From Woeseia sp. (GTDB taxonomy: Bacteria > Pseudomonadota > Gammaproteobacteria > Steroidobacterales > Woeseiaceae): a stretch of DNA of 64,000 nt. A model generated the notes under the pieces. It was not told the DNA's origin, made no database searches, and saw nothing but the letters and a program-made list of their open reading frames with translations. The stretch is from contig JBBDSK010000271.1 in the NCBI GenBank assembly GCA_040904985.1, forward strand, positions 486-64,485, read 5' to 3'. The stretch's first letter is position 1, and every line of letters starts with the position of its first letter. Shown piece by piece: positions 1 through 7,299 of the stretch. A program made the position numbers and the translations under genes.

Positions 1-919
1 GCCATAGAATCTCGCCTGCCGTCTCGCCCGCCATGGCGGCTATACGCGCATCGTTCTCCCGGCGCAGGTCGCGGTTGATGCGCAGGTAAGAAGCCAGCAG
101 GTCGGTCGGGTCCTCGACCTCGAGCTCGGGCGTGTTGTAGAGGATCTCCGGTACGACCTTCTGCAGGAACCGCTCGTTTACTGAAATACGGCTGTTGCGA
201 AAGTTCTTTTGGAAAACCCGGTAGTCGAAATTTGCGCGGCCCTCGTTGCCCACTTCGTCGCGAGCGTAAAGGCTGATCGGCGTCTTGACGTCCTGGTCCC
301 ACATGAGCGCAAAAAAAGCCACGCGCAAACCGGGGTCCGCGTTTGCAATGCCCGCACCGCTCGCCGGATAGCCGGGATACTCGTAGTCGCCTACCCGCAC
401 ACCGGAATCGACGTCCTCCGGCCGAACCCGATAGACGACCATCTCGGAACCGCCGTGGTTGATGTAGTGAAACTGCGAAGCGACGCTGACGTGGGGCGGC
501 GTCAGTCGCACCTCGACTTCACGGCTCGCGATCGATCCGATTTTGCGCAAACCGAACAGTACCGGGCGAACGGCGGTGACCTGCACCGTCAGTGGCCCTG
601 CTGAGAGTTCAGGCACCTCACGCTTGCCGATCGACCGGACGAGGCGCAGCTTGTGCTCCCCTTCCCGCACAAGATGTGCAGCATCGGAACCGGCAAGGCT
701 GAACACCGGCAGGGTTGCGCCGCCCTGATGCAGCGTGACCTCGAGGCCGGTCAGTTCCCCGCCGGGCGTGGTGACGGTAACGTCGAGTTCCCCGGACGGG
801 CCCACAAGCCGCGCAGGCTGAGCGATGTCGATGGCCGGCGGGTCCGAGCGGCCGGCGAAGTGCCACGCGGCGCCGGCCGCCGCGATAAAAAGGATCAGGA
901 CAGTAAGCAGTTTCCCCAT
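1..919 (-). CDS. Secreted or membrane-anchored protein, N-terminal ~306 aa only (gene runs off the left edge). Resembles the non-catalytic N-terminal region of M23-family metallopeptidases.
   Basis: Absent from the ORF track because there is no stop inside the window. Manual minus-strand translation from ATG at 919-917 is open to base 1: MGKLLTVLILFIAAAGAAWHF...DYRVFQKNFRNSRISVNERFLQKVVPEIL...YLRINRDLRRENDARIA. It has a hydrophobic N-terminal anchor. The family call rests on a recalled motif pattern; the catalytic domain is not visible. Confidence 0.55.
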   Translation of the reverse strand, partial: MGKLLTVLILFIAAAGAAWHFAGRSDPPAIDIAQPARLVGPSGELDVTVTTPGGELTGLEVTLHQGGATLPVFSLAGSDAAHLVREGEHKLRLVRSIGKREVPELSAGPLTVQVTAVRPVLFGLRKIGSIASREVEVRLTPPHVSVASQFHYINHGGSEMVVYRVRPEDVDSGVRVGDYEYPGYPASGAGIANADPGLRVAFFALMWDQDVKTPISLYARDEVGNEGRANFDYRVFQKNFRNSRISVNERFLQKVVPEILYNTPELEVEDPTDLLASYLRINRDLRRENDARIAAMAGETAGEILW

Positions 920-988: not shown

Positions 989-1309
989 CTAGTGGTTTTT
1001 TTGCTTCCCGAAAGCGTGGCCGAGCGCGCGCTTGAACTTGGCCAGGGCACCATCCACCGCCAGGTTGAGCGATTCGGCCTGATGACTGACAGCGATGGGC
1101 TGGAGTCCCGCGGGACGCGCTTCGAGCAGACATCGCTTATCGGCGCCGCCCCCTTTTTTGCTGCTGTTTTCGTCTCCGAGATGCACCTCGACGCGGGTGA
1201 GTCTTTCTCCAAAGCGGGCATTCAAAGCAGCCTGGATCTTTTCCTCGACATGGCGAGACAGTTGTTCGCGGCCCTCGATGTTATGGTCCGTATTGATCTG
1301 AACCAGCAT
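989..1309 (-). CDS. HPF/RaiA (S30AE) family ribosome-associated protein, short form
   Basis: 106 aa: MLVQINTDHNIEGREQLSRHVEEKIQAALNARFGERLTRVEVHLGDEN...KRCLLEARPAGLQPIAVSHQAESLNLAVDGALAKFKRAL. This is the typical short HPF/RaiA-like pattern. It lies 36 nt downstream of the eRF1-like gene on the same strand. Confidence 0.85.
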   Translation of the reverse strand: MLVQINTDHNIEGREQLSRHVEEKIQAALNARFGERLTRVEVHLGDENSSKKGGGADKRCLLEARPAGLQPIAVSHQAESLNLAVDGALAKFKRALGHAFGKQKNH

Positions 1310-1345
1310 TGTTACTCCTCATACATACGTGTAGCGCTTTCCGAC

Positions 1346-2491
1346 TCAATATCGGAAGACAGCGGCAAGCCCCGTTTTTGTTGGCATCCGGTCCCTTGGC
1401 ACGACCACCACTTCACCGCCCTGTCTTGCCACCAGCGTCGCCAGGTCGTCAAGAACGTCGTCAACATCCGCTTTTTCCAGGTCATCGAATTCGACTTCGC
1501 CGGTCGTGGCATCGATCCTGCCGGGCAGTTCGCAGTCTGCGTCGACAAGCAGTTTCGCGACACGTCCTGCAATGGCTGCGGCGGCGGCATCGCCCGCTTC
1601 CTCCGTGCCGAGTCCCTGGCCGCGGGACTCCTGGTACTCCTCGACTATTGCGCCAAGCCGCTCGAGGTAATGCGGCTGTACGAGTTGCCAGGCCGCATCC
1701 CGCAAGTCGTTGAGGGACAGACCCTCAGGATCCGCGTCGATACCCTGTTCCGCCAGGTACGGGTTATGGCTGACCCGTCGGAACACACTCTGGTTTTCCG
1801 GCAACGCCGCGAGAATGAGGGGAAGTTTCGCACGCGACGAATGTTTCGCCTTGGTCTCCCGGTCGACGGCACGGAAAAAGCGCTCGGCGTCGTGTTCGAC
1901 CTGGTCCTTGCGGCCACCGTGACCGTGGCGCATCGCCGGACCCTGGGCGCCGCCGTAGGACGATACCGTAAGGCGCGCATCGGTCACTTCCTCACCCAAC
2001 GCCTCAGTGAGAGTCCGCGGCACGCCCGGCGCGAGCTCGACTTCGTCCAGGACATCGCGATTGCCTTCGAACAGCCTGACGCGGTCGCGCGTGACGCCGA
2101 GTATCTGGTAGCGATCCGCCGACTGCAGGATTCGCAGCAGCGGCTTGATGTGGAAGCTGTCGGCCACAACTGCAAGCTCCGGAACCCCGCGCTGAAGCCT
2201 GAAGACGCGAAAAAAATCGGGTGCGGCAAGCACGGCCAGGCCATCCAGCGTGCAATTCCAGAACTCCTCGTTCCGGGCAACCTCCTTGAGCGGCTCGAGG
2301 AGCGAGCCGATCTCGCCCGACTCGTATTCGTGCGAAAGCGATTTCTCCACTTCTTCCAGGAGGTTCCTGAAGCGAATCGAATCCTGCTGATTCTGCGGGA
2401 AATGGCGATGTGTCGGCTGGTACAGGGAAATGCGCGGCGGCGCGCCGCTGTCGATCAGATCTTTCAGGTTGTCGATTTCGGTAGGGTCCAT
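1346..2491 (-). CDS. eRF1-like protein (bacterial archaeo-eukaryotic release factor, baeRF3-like family)
   Basis: The track ORF is 1346..2611. I trim it to ATG 2491 (MDPTEIDNLKDL), which has GGAG 8 nt upstream. Recalled family signatures: ISLYQPTHRH, LDGLAVLAAPDFFRVFRL, VVADSFHIKPLL, RYQILGVTRDRVRLFEG, and an acidic C-terminal domain. The family name comes from memory, not a search. Confidence 0.55.
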   Translation of the reverse strand: MDPTEIDNLKDLIDSGAPPRISLYQPTHRHFPQNQQDSIRFRNLLEEVEKSLSHEYESGEIGSLLEPLKEVARNEEFWNCTLDGLAVLAAPDFFRVFRLQRGVPELAVVADSFHIKPLLRILQSADRYQILGVTRDRVRLFEGNRDVLDEVELAPGVPRTLTEALGEEVTDARLTVSSYGGAQGPAMRHGHGGRKDQVEHDAERFFRAVDRETKAKHSSRAKLPLILAALPENQSVFRRVSHNPYLAEQGIDADPEGLSLNDLRDAAWQLVQPHYLERLGAIVEEYQESRGQGLGTEEAGDAAAAAIAGRVAKLLVDADCELPGRIDATTGEVEFDDLEKADVDDVLDDLATLVARQGGEVVVVPRDRMPTKTGLAAVFRY

Positions 2492-2609
2492 AACTCCAAT
2501 GTCTTCCGGTTTTGTGGCTGGCGAACTGGTACTGTTGGTGAAGCAATATGTGTGCCAGAGTGGCCGCGCCTGGAAAACATAAACAGCGGCCAAAGCCGTG
2601 CGGGGTTCC

Positions 2610-4151
2610 ATGACAACTGAAGGTCCGGCCTATCTCTCGAAATCGAAGCTGGTAAGCGCCTGGCAGTGCCTGAAGAAGCTTCATCTGATCGTCAACAGGC
2701 CGGAGCTGGCGGTAAAGCTGACAAAGACGGAGTCCTCCTTCAGAACGGGCAATGATGTCGGTGAAATTGCGAAGCGGATATATGGCACGCCCGAGGCTGT
2801 TGACATGCCGTATGCGAAAGACGCGGCCGCAATGCTGCGCGAGACAGAAGCGGTTCTCGGAAACGGCTTTGCTTTTCCCGTTTTCGAGGCGACGTTCCGG
2901 CACCAGGGAGTACTCGTGCGCGTGGACATGCTTCTCCCCGACGGTGACGGCTGGCATGCCATCGAGGTGAAGGCATCCACGTCGGTCAAGAGAGTGCACC
3001 TGCTGGACTGCGCTGTGCAGCTGTGGGTGATGGAGGGGGCGGGACTGCCGATCAAGTCGATCTCGGTCGGCTATGTCAATAACCGGTTCGTTTACCGTGG
3101 AGACGGCAATTACGCCGGACTCATTGCAGAGCAGGACGTGACTGCGGAGGCGGTTCGGCTGCGCGACAGCGTCATCGATCTTGTTCACCGGGCGCGGAAA
3201 ACACTGGCCGGGGATTTGCCTGATATCCCCGTCGGAGCTCACTGCAACAAACCCTACGAGTGCGAGTTTCGTGCCTTTTGCTGGCCGCTGAACACGGAGT
3301 ATCCGGTTCCCGGCCTTGGCGGCAGCAAGGCGAAGCATGCGGAGTGGGTGAACCGCGGCTTCACGGACATACGTGACCTGCCGGCGTCGGAAATTACCGC
3401 TGAACGGCAGCTACGGATTTATCGGGTCACCTGCGCCGGAACCCCAGAGATTTTACCCGGCGCAAGAGAGGCGCTGGCGGCACTGGGCTATCCGCGCTAC
3501 TTCCTGGATTTCGAAACCGTGGGGCCTGCAATCCCGATCTGGGAGGGCACGCGGCCGTACCAGGCTATCCCGGTTCAGTGGTCGATCCACGTCGATGACG
3601 GTCATGGTGACGGTTCGCTGGGCCGGATGAAGCACGCCGAGTTTCTGGACCTCTCCGGCGAGCCGCCCATGAGGCTGCTGGCGGAGAAGATGATAGACGC
3701 GCTGGGGAACGCCGGTCCGGTGTTTATGTACACGAACTATGAACTGGGAGTGATAAAAAACCTGATCGATTGGTGCCCGGACCTGAAAGAAAGGCTTCAA
3801 GCCATTATTGACCGCCTGTTCGATCTTGCGAATCTGCTCCAGGCCTTTTACTACCATCCCCGCATGGCCGGCTCGTGGTCTATCAAAGCCGCCGCGCCCG
3901 CCATCGCACCGCAGATGGATTACGCAATGCTGGACGGCATCAACGAGGGAACCGGTGCCTCCGAAGGTTTCCTCGAAGCGATCAGGGCGGATACAAAGCC
4001 GGACCGAAAGGCGCTTCTGGAACAGCAGTTGCTGCGGTACTGCCGCTTCGATACCGAGGCGATGGTGGAGATCGTTCACTTTCTCGAGAGGCAGCCGCAG
4101 GAAGCCGCGAACTCTGCGCTCGGAGCGCATGCCGGCCAGGCCTCGCGGTGA
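2610..4151 (+). CDS. DUF2779 domain protein (Cas4/AddB-like PD-(D/E)XK nuclease fold with Cys cluster)
   Basis: The N-terminus YLSKSKLVSAWQCLKKLHL is typical of DUF2779. Cys cluster: HCNKPYECEFRAFCW. The start is uncertain (GTG 2598 or ATG 2610). It is divergent from the baeRF/HPF pair. Confidence 0.7.
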   Translation: MTTEGPAYLSKSKLVSAWQCLKKLHLIVNRPELAVKLTKTESSFRTGNDVGEIAKRIYGTPEAVDMPYAKDAAAMLRETEAVLGNGFAFPVFEATFRHQGVLVRVDMLLPDGDGWHAIEVKASTSVKRVHLLDCAVQLWVMEGAGLPIKSISVGYVNNRFVYRGDGNYAGLIAEQDVTAEAVRLRDSVIDLVHRARKTLAGDLPDIPVGAHCNKPYECEFRAFCWPLNTEYPVPGLGGSKAKHAEWVNRGFTDIRDLPASEITAERQLRIYRVTCAGTPEILPGAREALAALGYPRYFLDFETVGPAIPIWEGTRPYQAIPVQWSIHVDDGHGDGSLGRMKHAEFLDLSGEPPMRLLAEKMIDALGNAGPVFMYTNYELGVIKNLIDWCPDLKERLQAIIDRLFDLANLLQAFYYHPRMAGSWSIKAAAPAIAPQMDYAMLDGINEGTGASEGFLEAIRADTKPDRKALLEQQLLRYCRFDTEAMVEIVHFLERQPQEAANSALGAHAGQASR

Positions 4152-4187
4152 GATACTGGCCGTCATCAAGCTGATGACAATTCAGGT

Positions 4188-5717
4188 ATGCAGCTCTCGG
4201 ATCTTGTCGACGTATCGCGCCGCGTAGGCGCCACTCGCAGCCGCCTGCAGAAACGTGCGGCCTTGAGCGGCTGCCTGCGGCAAGCCGCACCCGCAGAGGT
4301 CGGCCTCGTCGTCAACTATCTGACGGGCAGGCTTCCTCAGGGGCGCATCGGTCTGGGCCCGGCGATTCTTCGACGGCTCGCGGGCGGCGAGGCCGCGAGC
4401 ACCCCGACGCTTTCGTTGATCGATGTCGATGCCGCGTTCGAGCGCATTACCGCCACGCTCGGTAAGGGCTCGCAGAGTGCCCGGCGCGAGCAGCTCGCGG
4501 GGTTGTTCGATCGTGCGGCCGCGGCGGAGCGCGATTTTCTTGTGCGGTTGATTCTTGGCGAGCTGCGACAGGGGGCTCTCGAAGGAGTGCTGACCGACGC
4601 GATTGCGGACGCGGCTTCCCTGGATGCCGTCGAAGTTCGCCGGGCGGTCATGCTCGCCGGCGACCCGGCCGTGGTCGCAACGGCTGCGATGCGCGAAGGT
4701 CGCGCTGGTCTCGCGCACTTCAGACTGACGCCGCTGTCGCCGATCCAGCCTATGCTGGCCCAGCCGGCGACCGACATCCATGAAGCGATGGATACACTCG
4801 GCGAAGCGGCGCTCGAGTACAAGCTCGATGGCGCGCGCGTGCAAATACATAAGGTGCAATCCGAAGTAAGGATCTTCTCGCGTCGCCTGAACGACGTTAC
4901 CGCAAGTCTCCCCGAGATCGTACGTGCGGTGCAGGCCTGCCCTGGCCAACAGGTCATTCTCGACGGTGAAGCGATAGCAATGCGCGCCGATGGCAGGCCG
5001 CATCCATTCCAGATCACAATGTCGCGCTTCGGCCGCAGGGACGGGATCGCCGCAAGCGGAAGACTGCCTCTTCACGTTTTTCTGTTCGATTGCCTGCATC
5101 ACGATGGCGACGACCTGATAGACCGGCCGGGCGTCGAGCGCTTCCAGCGTTTAGCGGCCGCGGTAACGGCCGAGCTGCAGGTACCGCGCATCGTCACCGC
5201 CGACAAGCGCAAAGCCGCGGAGTTTCTTGACACCGCTCTCGCAAAAGGCCACGAAGGCGTCATGGCGAAATCGCTGCTCGCAACCTACCAGGCCGGCAAC
5301 CGCGGTGCCGACTGGCTAAAGGTGAAGCCGACGCACACGCTCGACCTCGCCGTGCTCGCCGTGGAATGGGGCAGCGGGCGGCGGCGTGGCTGGCTCAGCA
5401 ACCTGCACCTCGGCGCGCGCGACCCCGAATCGGGCGGCTTCGTCATGCTCGGCAAAACGTTCAAAGGGCTCACGGACGAGATGCTCGCGTGGCAGACGCA
5501 GCGCTTGCTGGAACTGGAGATTGGACGCGAAGACAGCGTCGTGCACGTGAAACCGGAGCTTGTCGTCGAGATCGCCGTGAACCAGATACAGACAAGCCCG
5601 CAGTACCCGGCCGGCATGGCCCTGCGGTTCGCGCGCGTCAAACGGTACCGTGAGGACAAGCCGGCGAGTGAGGCGGACACGGTTCAGACCGTGCGGGATA
5701 TTTTTGAACGCCAGTAG
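4188..5717 (+). CDS. ATP-dependent DNA ligase (Lig1/LigB-like, three-domain)
   Basis: 509 aa with the adenylation motif I EYKLDGARVQIHK (KxDG). There is an N-terminal DNA-binding-domain-like region MQLSDLVDVSRRVGATRSRLQK and a C-terminal OB region (LRFARVKRYREDK). It lies 36 nt after the DUF2779 gene. Confidence 0.9.
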   Translation: MQLSDLVDVSRRVGATRSRLQKRAALSGCLRQAAPAEVGLVVNYLTGRLPQGRIGLGPAILRRLAGGEAASTPTLSLIDVDAAFERITATLGKGSQSARREQLAGLFDRAAAAERDFLVRLILGELRQGALEGVLTDAIADAASLDAVEVRRAVMLAGDPAVVATAAMREGRAGLAHFRLTPLSPIQPMLAQPATDIHEAMDTLGEAALEYKLDGARVQIHKVQSEVRIFSRRLNDVTASLPEIVRAVQACPGQQVILDGEAIAMRADGRPHPFQITMSRFGRRDGIAASGRLPLHVFLFDCLHHDGDDLIDRPGVERFQRLAAAVTAELQVPRIVTADKRKAAEFLDTALAKGHEGVMAKSLLATYQAGNRGADWLKVKPTHTLDLAVLAVEWGSGRRRGWLSNLHLGARDPESGGFVMLGKTFKGLTDEMLAWQTQRLLELEIGREDSVVHVKPELVVEIAVNQIQTSPQYPAGMALRFARVKRYREDKPASEADTVQTVRDIFERQ

Positions 5718-5817: not shown

Positions 5818-7299
5818 TCAGGCCAGCCCGGGGCTTATCTGTAATTCGCCGCTTCCTTGCCGTTGCAGGCCGCGATTGAGCTTTGATACGAGCGCTCCCG
5901 GTATCAGGTGCTGGTCGTTTACCGTACGGAGAACTCTCTCTCGGAGATCATTTAGGTCAGCGCCCGCGATGGCGCGCGTGAAATCGTTCCGATTCGGGCG
6001 ATCCGGAAAATCCAGCCCTGGCTGGGCTTGTAGCAAAAGCCCCAGTGCAAGAACGCATTCCTCGCGAGTTCCGACGCAGTCCCACGGTTTCAATTTGCCG
6101 GAGACAAGCTGCAGTACGTGCTGCCGTATGGCCGGACGTCGAATGACGTCCTCGCAAAAGATGGCTTCGATTCCGGTTACACCTATAAACGGATACAGGG
6201 CAAGTGCCGTAAAGGCGCATTTTGCGCAGCGTTTGCACCATTCCCTGCCTTCTCGCCCACTTTTGTTACAGCTGATGAAATCGTTGAAGTAAGCTGAATG
6301 CCGCGAGAACATCTGCGCCAGCTGCAGATCCGAGTACGGCCTGAGGACACTGAATACTTCGACGTCCTGAACGATTCGCCGCTGTACAAAGTCAGACAGC
6401 CCTTTTTCGAATTCCAGCGATTTAGCGTACTGGTGGTTTATTTCAAAACCCTTGTAAACGACGTTTCCGACATTCGCCGAGCTCTCGTTTCCTGCGGCCA
6501 CGAATTTCGACTTGGTAATGATCGCAGCCACCAGGCCAATTGCCAGGAATATTGAGGCATGCGGTGTGTGTCCCCATTTGTACCTGCGCCTGGCAAGCAT
6601 CTTCGGGTCGATTTCATACGAAATTTCCATGGATTCCGTATTTCCGGAAATCTCGATCACGCGCCGTCTTGTGCGATTGGGGCCGATTGATACCCAGGAG
6701 AAAGGCAGGCCGGCTGCCCTCAGTAGTTCAGCAGCTACAATGGTGTCCTTGCCTCCTCCGTTAAGCATTAACGTTCTGGAAACTGAGCCGATTCTGACGG
6801 ACGTGCGGTCACTGTCGGGCTCGGCAAGAACGTCAATCAGTTTTGTCGGATCCAGCCCGTGCCGATAGCGGAATTCTGCCAAGCCGCCGAGAAGGAATTT
6901 TTCAAAGAAATCGATCGATTCAGCGTCCAGCGTGGCCGTGCGAATTTGGACGGTACGGAAATCCGCCAGCTTGAAGAAAAATGGAGCGAAGCAAAGACCA
7001 AGTAAGGTGAGCAATTGCTGGCGAGGCGCGGCCGGAAACTCCTCAAGTGCGGACTGGAAGGGCTCTGGAAATTCCACGGTGATTTCAAAACTGTCTCCGC
7101 AGGCGTGGTAGCGAAGGCTAAGCGTATTCGCCGATAAGTTTGCAGCCATCAACTCGAGTGCCTTTCGCCGCGGTGGAAACTCCAAAACGAGATTCCTTAC
7201 CGCTTTCAGCATTCTCTTCGCCACGGTCACTTCATAGCTGATGGCTTTCAACCTTCCTTCCTCAATGAATTTACGGCTGTCCACCACATGCGGAAGCAC
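5818..7299 (-). CDS. Hypothetical protein with a PP-loop-like nucleotide-binding motif and a C-terminal CxxCxKC motif (adenine-nucleotide alpha-hydrolase-like; possibly MurL-related)
   Basis: 493-aa ORF with a GTG start. Motifs: LMLNGGGKDTIVAAELL, AAGNESSAN, and WCKRCAKCAFTALALYPF. It is clearly more AT-rich than its neighbours (sampled lines ~45-55% GC). It has no operon partners and is convergent with the ligase. Confidence 0.5.
   Translation of the reverse strand: MLPHVVDSRKFIEEGRLKAISYEVTVAKRMLKAVRNLVLEFPPRRKALELMAANLSANTLSLRYHACGDSFEITVEFPEPFQSALEEFPAAPRQQLLTLLGLCFAPFFFKLADFRTVQIRTATLDAESIDFFEKFLLGGLAEFRYRHGLDPTKLIDVLAEPDSDRTSVRIGSVSRTLMLNGGGKDTIVAAELLRAAGLPFSWVSIGPNRTRRRVIEISGNTESMEISYEIDPKMLARRRYKWGHTPHASIFLAIGLVAAIITKSKFVAAGNESSANVGNVVYKGFEINHQYAKSLEFEKGLSDFVQRRIVQDVEVFSVLRPYSDLQLAQMFSRHSAYFNDFISCNKSGREGREWCKRCAKCAFTALALYPFIGVTGIEAIFCEDVIRRPAIRQHVLQLVSGKLKPWDCVGTREECVLALGLLLQAQPGLDFPDRPNRNDFTRAIAGADLNDLRERVLRTVNDQHLIPGALVSKLNRGLQRQGSGELQISPGLA

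Follow-up and report, generated by a model that had tools for sequence, protein, structure and literature searches.

A probable Balon–RaiA ribosome hibernation operon with a candidate sigma-54 promoter in an uncultured sediment bacterium

The gene pair at positions 989–2491 of the 64-kb stretch of DNA analyzed here (the window) very probably forms a ribosome hibernation operon in which a Balon-type gene is joined by one of the RaiA/YfiA type. Both genes lie on the minus strand. The first is a 381-aa ORF (1346–2491), recognized by Pfam, NCBIfam, phmmer and Foldseek as a homolog of the Balon-family (aeRF1-like, Pfam baeRF_family3) ribosome hibernation factors; it is followed, after a 36-nt spacer read directly from the sequence (1310–1345), by a 106-aa ORF (989–1309) for a short RaiA/YfiA-type S30AE protein with a long β2–β3 loop (Pfam PF02482 and PDB 7m4z_v). 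The coordinates, gap and strand given in the initial annotation are confirmed. Its remark that such modules had been predicted but not characterized is outdated: Burroughs and Aravind predicted an operon link between baeRF and S30AE genes in 2019 (PMC6514570), and in 2024 Balon was solved on the ribosome with RaiA and EF-Tu (Helena-Bueno et al., PMC10901736), in a study that also found Balon genes to adjoin raiA "most frequently." The locus is an ordinary new example of Balon–RaiA hibernation, a system already known, and with it an uncultured sediment bacterium joins the carriers of this pair.

The 381-aa protein matches Pfam baeRF_family3 (PF18845) with an E-value of 5.2e-45 and 154 bits (cut-off 31.5), and Balon of Psychrobacter urativorans (AOC03_06830; PDB 8RD8, 8RDV and 8RDW, chain B) matches the same family with 106 bits. 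The motifs from which the protein had first been called baeRF3-type and eRF1-like (LYQPTH, FHIKPLL and RLFEG) are present in the translation, and the family match, which like that of the smaller protein lies far above chance, bears that call out. NCBIfam holds one equivalog for each of the two characterized Balon subfamilies, NF052287 and NF052288. With NF052287 ("AOC03_06830 family ribosome hibernation factor") the protein scores 182.5 bits over residues 10–381, which does not reach the equivalog cut-off of 330, and with NF052288 it scores 22 bits, under the cut-off of 480. A phmmer search of the PDB aligns it over its full length with Balon chain 8rd8_B (residues 9–381 onto 5–369, E 2e-22). 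By the definition of the Balon family in the 2024 study, iterated HMMER seeded with Balon at an inclusion E-value of 0.01, the protein would fall within the family; it marks out a third, uncharacterized Balon subfamily, which has more than 5,500 database relatives and spans more than 15 phyla at 55–60% identity.

The structural comparison agrees with this placement. When an AF2 model of the protein was used as the Foldseek query, the top three PDB matches were the Balon chains 8rd8_B, 8rdw_B and 8rdv_B (about 383 aligned columns at only 22–23% identity, with E-values from 4e-17 to 8e-16), followed by Msmeg1130, aRF1, Rv2629 and Pelota, so that the suspected eRF1-type fold is recovered as well. 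The model thus predicts a three-domain aeRF1-like fold with Balon as the nearest structure. The TM-score to Balon reaches only 0.45, a consequence of a poorly modeled N-domain and of a different domain arrangement. The model was built on a 35-sequence alignment and leaves the N-domain unresolved (pLDDT below 50 at residues 1–36 and 79–115), but this domain is covered by the sequence alignment with Balon. The mycobacterial Balon homologs Msmeg1130 and Rv2629 (PDB 8V9J, 8V9K and 8V9L) share the fold (Foldseek E 2e-10 to 4e-8) and, like the 381-aa protein, lack NIKS and GGQ; they are A-site hibernation factors whose sequence similarity to it is very weak, as the NF052288 score indicates, and whose context is a hypoxia regulon, whereas here the context is a pair with RaiA.

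The 381-aa protein does not carry the class-I release-factor signature of aeRF1, a GGQ loop together with NIKS. The stop-codon motif NIKS is absent from it and from all 35 aligned relatives. GGQ is absent from it too, and no column of the middle-domain loop has a conserved glutamine among those 35; GGQ strings do occur in the C-domain (position 358) of 13 relatives and, sporadically, in the loop of one. Nor was a Pelota-type loop A signature found in the protein. Balon shares the lack of NIKS and GGQ, and it shares an N-domain motif, THRx(H/F)PxNxQD, which in our alignment takes the form THRx[HFYW]PxNxQD and lines up with THREHPANDQD of Balon. An HP motif in the N-domain of Balon contacts A1492 and A1913 (PMC10901736), and the His-Pro of THREHPANDQD is probably that motif, since the aligned sequence of Balon has no other His-Pro in its N-terminal domain. 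At this position the 381-aa protein has F31-P32, Phe-Pro against the His-Pro of Balon; among the 35 sequences the proline is invariant and the residue before it is H in 24, Y in six, F in two, R in two and W in one. In the C-terminal, EF-Tu-binding domain, a two-strand β-hairpin insert has been described for baeRF proteins and Balon (PMC6514570; PMC10901736), and the hairpin modeled at residues 323–335 (strands 323–326 and 333–335, pLDDT 72–86 by 10-residue block) fits that insert.

The initial annotation had proposed a two-component module for ribosome silencing or for rescue and quality control. Its silencing half stands, but its rescue half is unsupported, given the missing NIKS, the lack of a conserved GGQ glutamine and the closer resemblance to Balon. 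In its fullest form the rescue proposal would make the 381-aa protein a rescue or alternative termination factor, acting by non-catalytic splitting as Pelota/Dom34 does or by catalytic release, with the HPF-like protein handling the freed ribosomes. We judge this highly unlikely, although the fold is that of aeRF1 and Pelota, Burroughs and Aravind raised such a role as a possibility for baeRF families, and the middle-domain loop is unusually conserved, with a fixed length and invariant His and Gly residues, a pattern that they read as a sign of catalysis in other clades (PMC6514570). With aeRF1 and Pelota the protein shares the three-domain architecture and probably the mode of entry, as an A-site ligand brought in by an EF-Tu-type GTPase; identity is 11–18% (Foldseek), and it has neither NIKS and GGQ nor the Pelota loop A. 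In sequence and in fold Balon, a hibernation factor, is its nearer relative, ahead of aRF1 and Pelota. Balon and two mycobacterial homologs do not release peptides and instead keep the catalytic center inert (PMC10901736).

The larger protein also differs from Balon in the loop at the GGQ position (residues 172–192, pLDDT below 50 in the model). In Balon this "lasso" loop runs around A2602 and there is a bL27 trap (PMC10901736). The loop of the 381-aa protein is nine residues longer, different in sequence and fixed in length. It contains TxxxYGG...MxHG(H/Q)G, an invariant motif that Balon lacks, so its contacts with the peptidyl-transferase center may differ from those of Balon.

The 106-aa protein matches Pfam Ribosomal_S30AE (PF02482; 7.3e-9, 36.7 bits, cut-off 23.7), which upholds its assignment as HPF/RaiA-like. 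Its closest solved relative is ribosome-bound YfiA of Acinetobacter baumannii (PDB 7M4Z_v; E 7.7e-22 with the single sequence, 1.8e-32 with the family profile), deposited as "hpf" and located, in 70S monomers, at the decoding region of the 30S subunit. The two proteins belong to the same S30AE subfamily, are similar in length and share a long, ribosome-contacting β2–β3 loop (DENxxKxGxxD); the loop DENSSKKGGGADKR of the 106-aa protein lines up with DENGDKGGDKDIH in A. baumannii YfiA and with DNSGASDGGQKSHK in P. urativorans RaiA. The latter, which binds the ribosome together with Balon, has the long loop in common with the protein but is of another S30AE subfamily. Relative to E. coli HPF/YfiA (short HPF family, TIGR00741), the 106-aa protein has the same fold family and likewise no C-terminal dimerization domain, so it is a short form; it differs in scoring below the TIGR00741 equivalog cut-off (23.6 against 40.9) and in having a β2–β3 loop about eight residues longer than that of E. 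coli HPF. It is a second HPF-family paralog in its genome, unlike A. baumannii YfiA: a canonical HPF gene lies beside rpoN on another contig. A search of the genome, 78% complete, found no RMF match.

Conservation of the arrangement favors a hibernation operon. The 381-aa and S30AE genes are adjacent in all seven of the closest relatives, with gaps of 5–37 nt. Among distant loci, drawn from more than 15 phyla, 35 of the 72 that were informative also keep the pair, and the Balon gene of P. urativorans likewise adjoins a RaiA-type gene. Where present, the S30AE gene is directly downstream on the same strand in 33 of 37 loci, its match opening 13–131 nt past the end of the Balon match, and it is the only conserved neighbor; no third conserved gene or regulator emerged from the 80 loci compared, where all other clusters were overlapping-frame artifacts or covered seven loci at most. 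The expectation that the adjacency would hold in related genomes is borne out at these distances but not within the genus. There, one of 16 genomes has an ortholog, unpaired and with its S30AE gene unlinked, and six have a paralog of 29–31% identity with no S30AE gene within about 1.5 kb. In about half of the subfamily no S30AE gene adjoins, and eight of 11 tested genomes of this kind have no copy of this S30AE subfamily at all; the partnership is thus facultative. On the protein tree the pairing state changes at least 18 times and the phyla are strongly mixed; horizontal transfer seems to spread the two-gene cassette. A third Balon subfamily would in this way travel between phyla in company with the S30AE subfamily to which A. 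baumannii YfiA belongs.

These losses and gains could also be read to mean that the two proteins are independent stress proteins with no joint mechanism, their adjacency reflecting co-regulation or co-transfer only. The many changes of pairing state, the loci that lack the partner and the unlinked S30AE gene of the sole same-genus genome with an ortholog all fit that reading, as does A. baumannii, which has this S30AE subfamily and whose YfiA works without a Balon partner: according to a 2025 preprint, Acinetobacter did not take up Balon, which only the Moraxella/Psychrobacter lineage acquired. We nevertheless consider it very unlikely, given that the S30AE gene is the sole conserved neighbor, given its nearly constant downstream, same-strand placement, and given the observation of Balon and RaiA on the same ribosome particles (PMC10901736). 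The mixing of phyla in the tree might instead point to an anti-phage or anti-effector conflict system by which translation is halted upon attack: the baeRF clade is laterally spread and has been discussed in a conflict context (PMC6514570), and the divergent neighbor of our pair is a Cas4-like DUF2779 nuclease gene. This is extremely unlikely, since PADLOC has no match for either protein, a defense gene is never a conserved neighbor among the 80 loci, and the pair is flanked in relatives by ordinary metabolic or stress genes.

If the hibernation operon works as the Balon and RaiA system does, the S30AE protein would, under stress or non-growth, occupy the 30S site of the mRNA and of the anticodon stems of the A- and P-site tRNAs. 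By analogy with Balon, which binds the A site with EF-Tu independently of mRNA, the 381-aa aeRF1-like protein would sit in the A site of the same ribosome, probably delivered or bound by EF-Tu. The N-domain of this protein would contact the decoding center while staying out of the mRNA channel, and its middle-domain loop would reach toward the peptidyl-transferase center with no hydrolysis of peptidyl-tRNA. Together the two proteins would silence and protect 70S ribosomes.

The start of the larger gene is likely the ATG at 2491. The ORF could also be read from 2611 as 421 aa, but the same start Met is found in all 35 aligned homologs and the Balon alignment opens at residue 9 of the 381-aa protein against residue 5 of Balon. 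The small gene has a Shine-Dalgarno sequence, GAGGAG (1315–1320), 5 nt ahead of its ATG, and a terminator scan of the coding (minus) strand found no terminator-like site in the spacer; both features are consistent with a single transcript. The same scan gave nothing meaningful on the coding strand as a whole. Over 700–2900, a sigma-70 promoter scan found no promoter and an Rfam search at permissive E-values found no match, and RNA folding shows no terminator in the region 3′ of the small gene (z = -0.6). The sequencing runs that contain the locus are all DNA metagenomes; RNA sequencing runs were sought and none was found.

Ahead of the pair lies a candidate sigma-54 (-24/-12) promoter, TGGCAC-ACATA-TTGC (2543–2557, minus strand), an exact match to TGGCAC-N5-TTGC that precedes the ATG at 2491 by 51 nt and is the only one in the window, where 0.14 are expected. 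The motif is conserved at -56, -48 and -39 in relatives of 79%, 76% and 66% identity, respectively, and when the upstream DNA is aligned with that of the 79% and 76% relatives, the closest two, the motif stands out as the one conserved block in otherwise diverged sequence. The genome has rpoN and about six strong PF00158 enhancer-binding proteins. From the conserved -24/-12 element we infer that sigma-54 RNA polymerase transcribes the operon in this lineage, in which case the operon would answer to an enhancer-binding protein instead of a housekeeping promoter. The motif shows no excess over background upstream of 77 distant loci of the subfamily, so the promoter would be lineage-specific.

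A sigma-54 promoter before a Balon–RaiA pair is the one detail of this locus that may be unreported; our literature search for Balon with RpoN returned author-name matches only, and the literature searched describes no regulatory input of the sigma-54 kind for Balon-type hibernation. If real, the promoter would be a concrete regulatory input for such hibernation. A broader, speculative and on balance unlikely proposal joins it to the loop at the GGQ position: the subfamily may engage the peptidyl-transferase center unlike the three characterized Balons, through the fixed-length, His/Gly-rich loop TxxxYGG...MxHG(H/Q)G(R/K)K, a difference that could extend to chemistry or to ligand or metal binding there, and the pair may, in the clade of the window, be part of a dormancy regulon driven by sigma-54, which would take the role that RpoS has in E. 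coli. The promoter, again if real, would hint that in this lineage a regulon for general stress or dormancy is under sigma-54; the same promoter type lies ahead of otsA-like, Ku, CsbD, PfpI, Cu/Zn-SOD and CBS genes in this genome.

The two genes lie on the minus strand of the window, the 381-aa ORF at 1346–2491 and the 106-aa ORF at 989–1309, with a 36-nt spacer between them; this is the arrangement described in the initial annotation, and the motifs it quoted from the larger protein are found in the translation. Translation of the 381-aa protein likely starts at the ATG at 2491 rather than at an upstream ATG at 2611, because the equivalent Met starts 35 of 35 aligned homologs and the Balon alignment opens at residue 9 vs residue 5. 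The 106-aa gene has GAGGAG 5 nt ahead of its ATG, and no terminator-like site was found on the coding strand between the two genes. Downstream of the pair lies an M23-peptidase-like gene (2–919, minus strand).

The 381-aa protein matches Pfam baeRF_family3 (5.2e-45) and, more weakly, families 6, 7, 8, and 11. Its top NCBIfam model is NF052287, "AOC03_06830 family ribosome hibernation factor," at 182.5 bits, which does not reach the equivalog cut-off of 330; AOC03_06830 is Balon of Psychrobacter urativorans (PMC10901736). The only real match in a PDB sequence search is 8rd8_B, Balon bound to the P. urativorans 70S ribosome, aligned end to end with an E value of 2e-22, and the Balon sequence taken from this alignment also matches baeRF_family3. 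An AF2 model (mean pLDDT 68.6; middle and C-domains confident, N-domain poor) retrieved by fold, in order, three Balon chains, the mycobacterial homolog Msmeg1130, archaeal aRF1, the mycobacterial Rv2629, and Pelota. The family match, the Balon alignment, and the fold ranking together bear out the original eRF1-like, baeRF3-type identification. The genome has one baeRF3 gene.

The HPF/RaiA-like identification of the 106-aa protein is likewise upheld, as it scores above the Pfam S30AE threshold and has a single close solved relative, 7m4z_v (7.7e-22 with one sequence, 1.8e-32 with a family profile). The latter is the factor on the Acinetobacter baumannii 70S ribosome, deposited as "hpf" and later argued to be YfiA/RaiA, which makes many ribosome contacts through a long beta2-beta3 loop. 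The window protein and P. urativorans RaiA (8rd8_D), the factor observed together with Balon (PMC10901736), share this long loop, whereas E. coli HPF is without it. The genome, a MAG from a sediment metagenome (78% complete, 275 contigs), retains a canonical HPF gene directly downstream of rpoN, whose product matches E. coli HPF at 1.6e-28, and the 106-aa gene is therefore a second, dedicated S30AE paralog. RMF was not detected in this 78% complete MAG. We also note that the S30AE subfamily partnered with this Balon subfamily across many phyla includes A. baumannii YfiA (1.8e-32). P. urativorans RaiA instead falls among canonical HPFs, with E values of 4.8e-20 to the rpoN-linked HPF and only 6.5e-4 to the window-type subfamily. 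The Acinetobacter factor may be a horizontal acquisition and not an altered form of the ancestral HPF.

The locus is very probably a Balon-RaiA-type hibernation pair. By homology to 8RD8/8RDV/8RDW and 7M4Z, we infer that both proteins bind the ribosome; the small protein would block the 30S mRNA/tRNA path, and the large one would occupy the A site together with EF-Tu and leave the catalytic center inert. Its N-domain would lie clear of the mRNA channel and so permit co-binding with RaiA, by analogy with Balon, whose N-domain stays off that channel and allows RaiA to bind as well (PMC10901736). Burroughs and Aravind (2019; PMC6514570) reported a persistent baeRF-HPF operon link and proposed non-catalytic A-site blockers working with HPF. 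Helena-Bueno et al. (2024; PMC10901736) visualized Balon, RaiA, and EF-Tu bound to ribosomes and found Balon homologs in about 20% of bacteria, with raiA the most frequent adjoining gene; a 2025 preprint notes non-canonical hpf genes adjoining Balon. In light of this literature, the pair is a further example of an already known system. The initial proposal of a two-component module was therefore right in kind, but its novelty is outdated by the 2019 and 2024 papers and its "rescue" element is unsupported. The remaining interest of the locus lies in a distinct conserved loop and a candidate sigma-54 promoter.

Neither NIKS nor, in the middle-domain loop, GGQ was found in the 381-aa protein, and no loop column of the subfamily alignment has a conserved Gln. 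The loop at the GGQ/"lasso" position is 9 residues longer than that of Balon and is nearly invariant in the subfamily (T175, Y179-G180-G181, M187, H189-G190, G192); loops in most baeRF families were described in 2019 as poorly conserved and of unconstrained length (PMC6514570). This longer, conserved loop is a real departure from Balon. The N-domain motif THRx(H/F/Y/W)PxNxQD, Phe-Pro in the window protein, aligns with THREHPANDQD of Balon. No other His-Pro occurs in the N-terminal domain of the Balon sequence covered by the alignment, so this segment presumably corresponds to the "HP motif," which contacts A1492/A1913 (PMC10901736). A two-strand hairpin modeled at 323–335 in the C-domain fits the insert described for baeRF/Balon (PMC6514570, PMC10901736).

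The subfamily exceeds 5,500 proteins at E <1e-5, the top 120 all at least 57% identical. Among the seven closest metagenomic relatives (65–79% identity) the pair is kept in all seven, with gaps of 5–37 nt and different flanking genes each time; only one of 16 same-genus genomes has an ortholog (58% identity), its S30AE gene on a separate contig. We also compared 80 distant loci (50–60% identity, more than 15 phyla) on one-genome-per-species contigs. The small-protein homolog is immediately downstream on the same strand in 33 (match starting 13–131 nt past the Balon match), immediately upstream in two, more distant in two (1.5 and 2.5 kb), and missing despite adequate flanks in 35; eight are uninformative. 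No other conserved neighbor was found in these 80 loci, and 8 of 11 tested genomes with no adjacent partner have no member of this S30AE subfamily. Phyla are freely mixed on the protein tree, where pairing state changes at least 18 times against a shuffle mean of 24.5 (0.4% of shuffles are as low). We read the pair as a horizontally spreading two-gene cassette that is often broken up, its adjacency tracking gene history and not the species tree; the loss of adjacency that the initial annotation held to count against it is therefore seen among taxonomic, not sequence, relatives. An ATP synthase gamma-like ORF (named from sequence alone) directly follows the pair in 7 of the 80 loci, including L058 (5513–6424). 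The Balon-subfamily proteins of Thioalkalivibrio versutus AL2 and a Wenzhouxiangella MAG (L059 and L064) are near-identical (branch lengths about 0.003) and their S30AE proteins are one residue apart, which points to a very recent transfer or a binning/labeling error.

An exact sigma-54 promoter match, TGGCAC-ACATA-TTGC, lies upstream of the ATG at 2543–2557 (minus strand), separated from it by 51 nt. The match was noticed post hoc and is the only one in the 64-kb window, where 0.14 are expected. The window element TGGCACACATATTGC has counterparts in three relatives, TGGCACGCATGTTGC in L100 (79% protein identity, 56 nt to ATG), TGGCATGCATATTGC in L096 (76%, 48 nt), and CGGCACGAAACTTGC in L098 (66%, 39 nt), and in the window/L100/L096 alignment it is the one conserved stretch, the rest of the upstream DNA having diverged. 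The element is absent in three other close relatives and is not above background upstream of the distant loci. A second small block, G(A/G)CATTG, lies 6–7 nt before the ATG in the window (2498–2504, minus strand), L100, and L096; it is not a Shine-Dalgarno sequence. In a literature search, no paper was found that connects Balon with RpoN, and a sigma-54 promoter before a hibernation pair is possibly a new detail.

Besides rpoN, the genome encodes about six enhancer-binding proteins, all on contigs other than that of the window. It contains 49 TGGCA[CT]-N5-TTGC sites, where base composition predicts about 11.5. Six sigma-54-type sites on the 19-kb contig C243 precede genes for an otsA-like GT20, Ku, DJ-1/PfpI, MgtC, Cu/Zn-SOD, and a membrane protein. 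Further sites lie ahead of genes for CsbD, a CBS-pair protein, the N-terminus of a glycogen-branching enzyme, and BrkB/YihY; the sites noted outside the window are on contigs C243, C213, C66, C189, and C166. Their position before stress-type genes and the hibernation operon suggests a sigma-54-driven general-stress or dormancy regulon that would include this operon.

Divergent from the hibernation operon are two plus-strand genes (2598–5717), a DUF2779 gene (2598–4151) whose product has weak Cas4-like matches (PADLOC, E about 3e-4) and, 36 nt after it, a PRK03180-type ATP-dependent DNA ligase gene (4188–5717). The two may work as a pair in DNA repair during stationary phase; the Ku gene with its sigma-54-type promoter lies elsewhere in the same genome. 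Beyond them, a 493-aa ORF (5818–7299, minus strand) occupies a low-GC stretch (0.53–0.58 vs about 0.62 around it) and has a sub-threshold match to MurL, the UDP-MurNAc-L-Ala-L-Glu epimerase (200 bits, cut-off 700).
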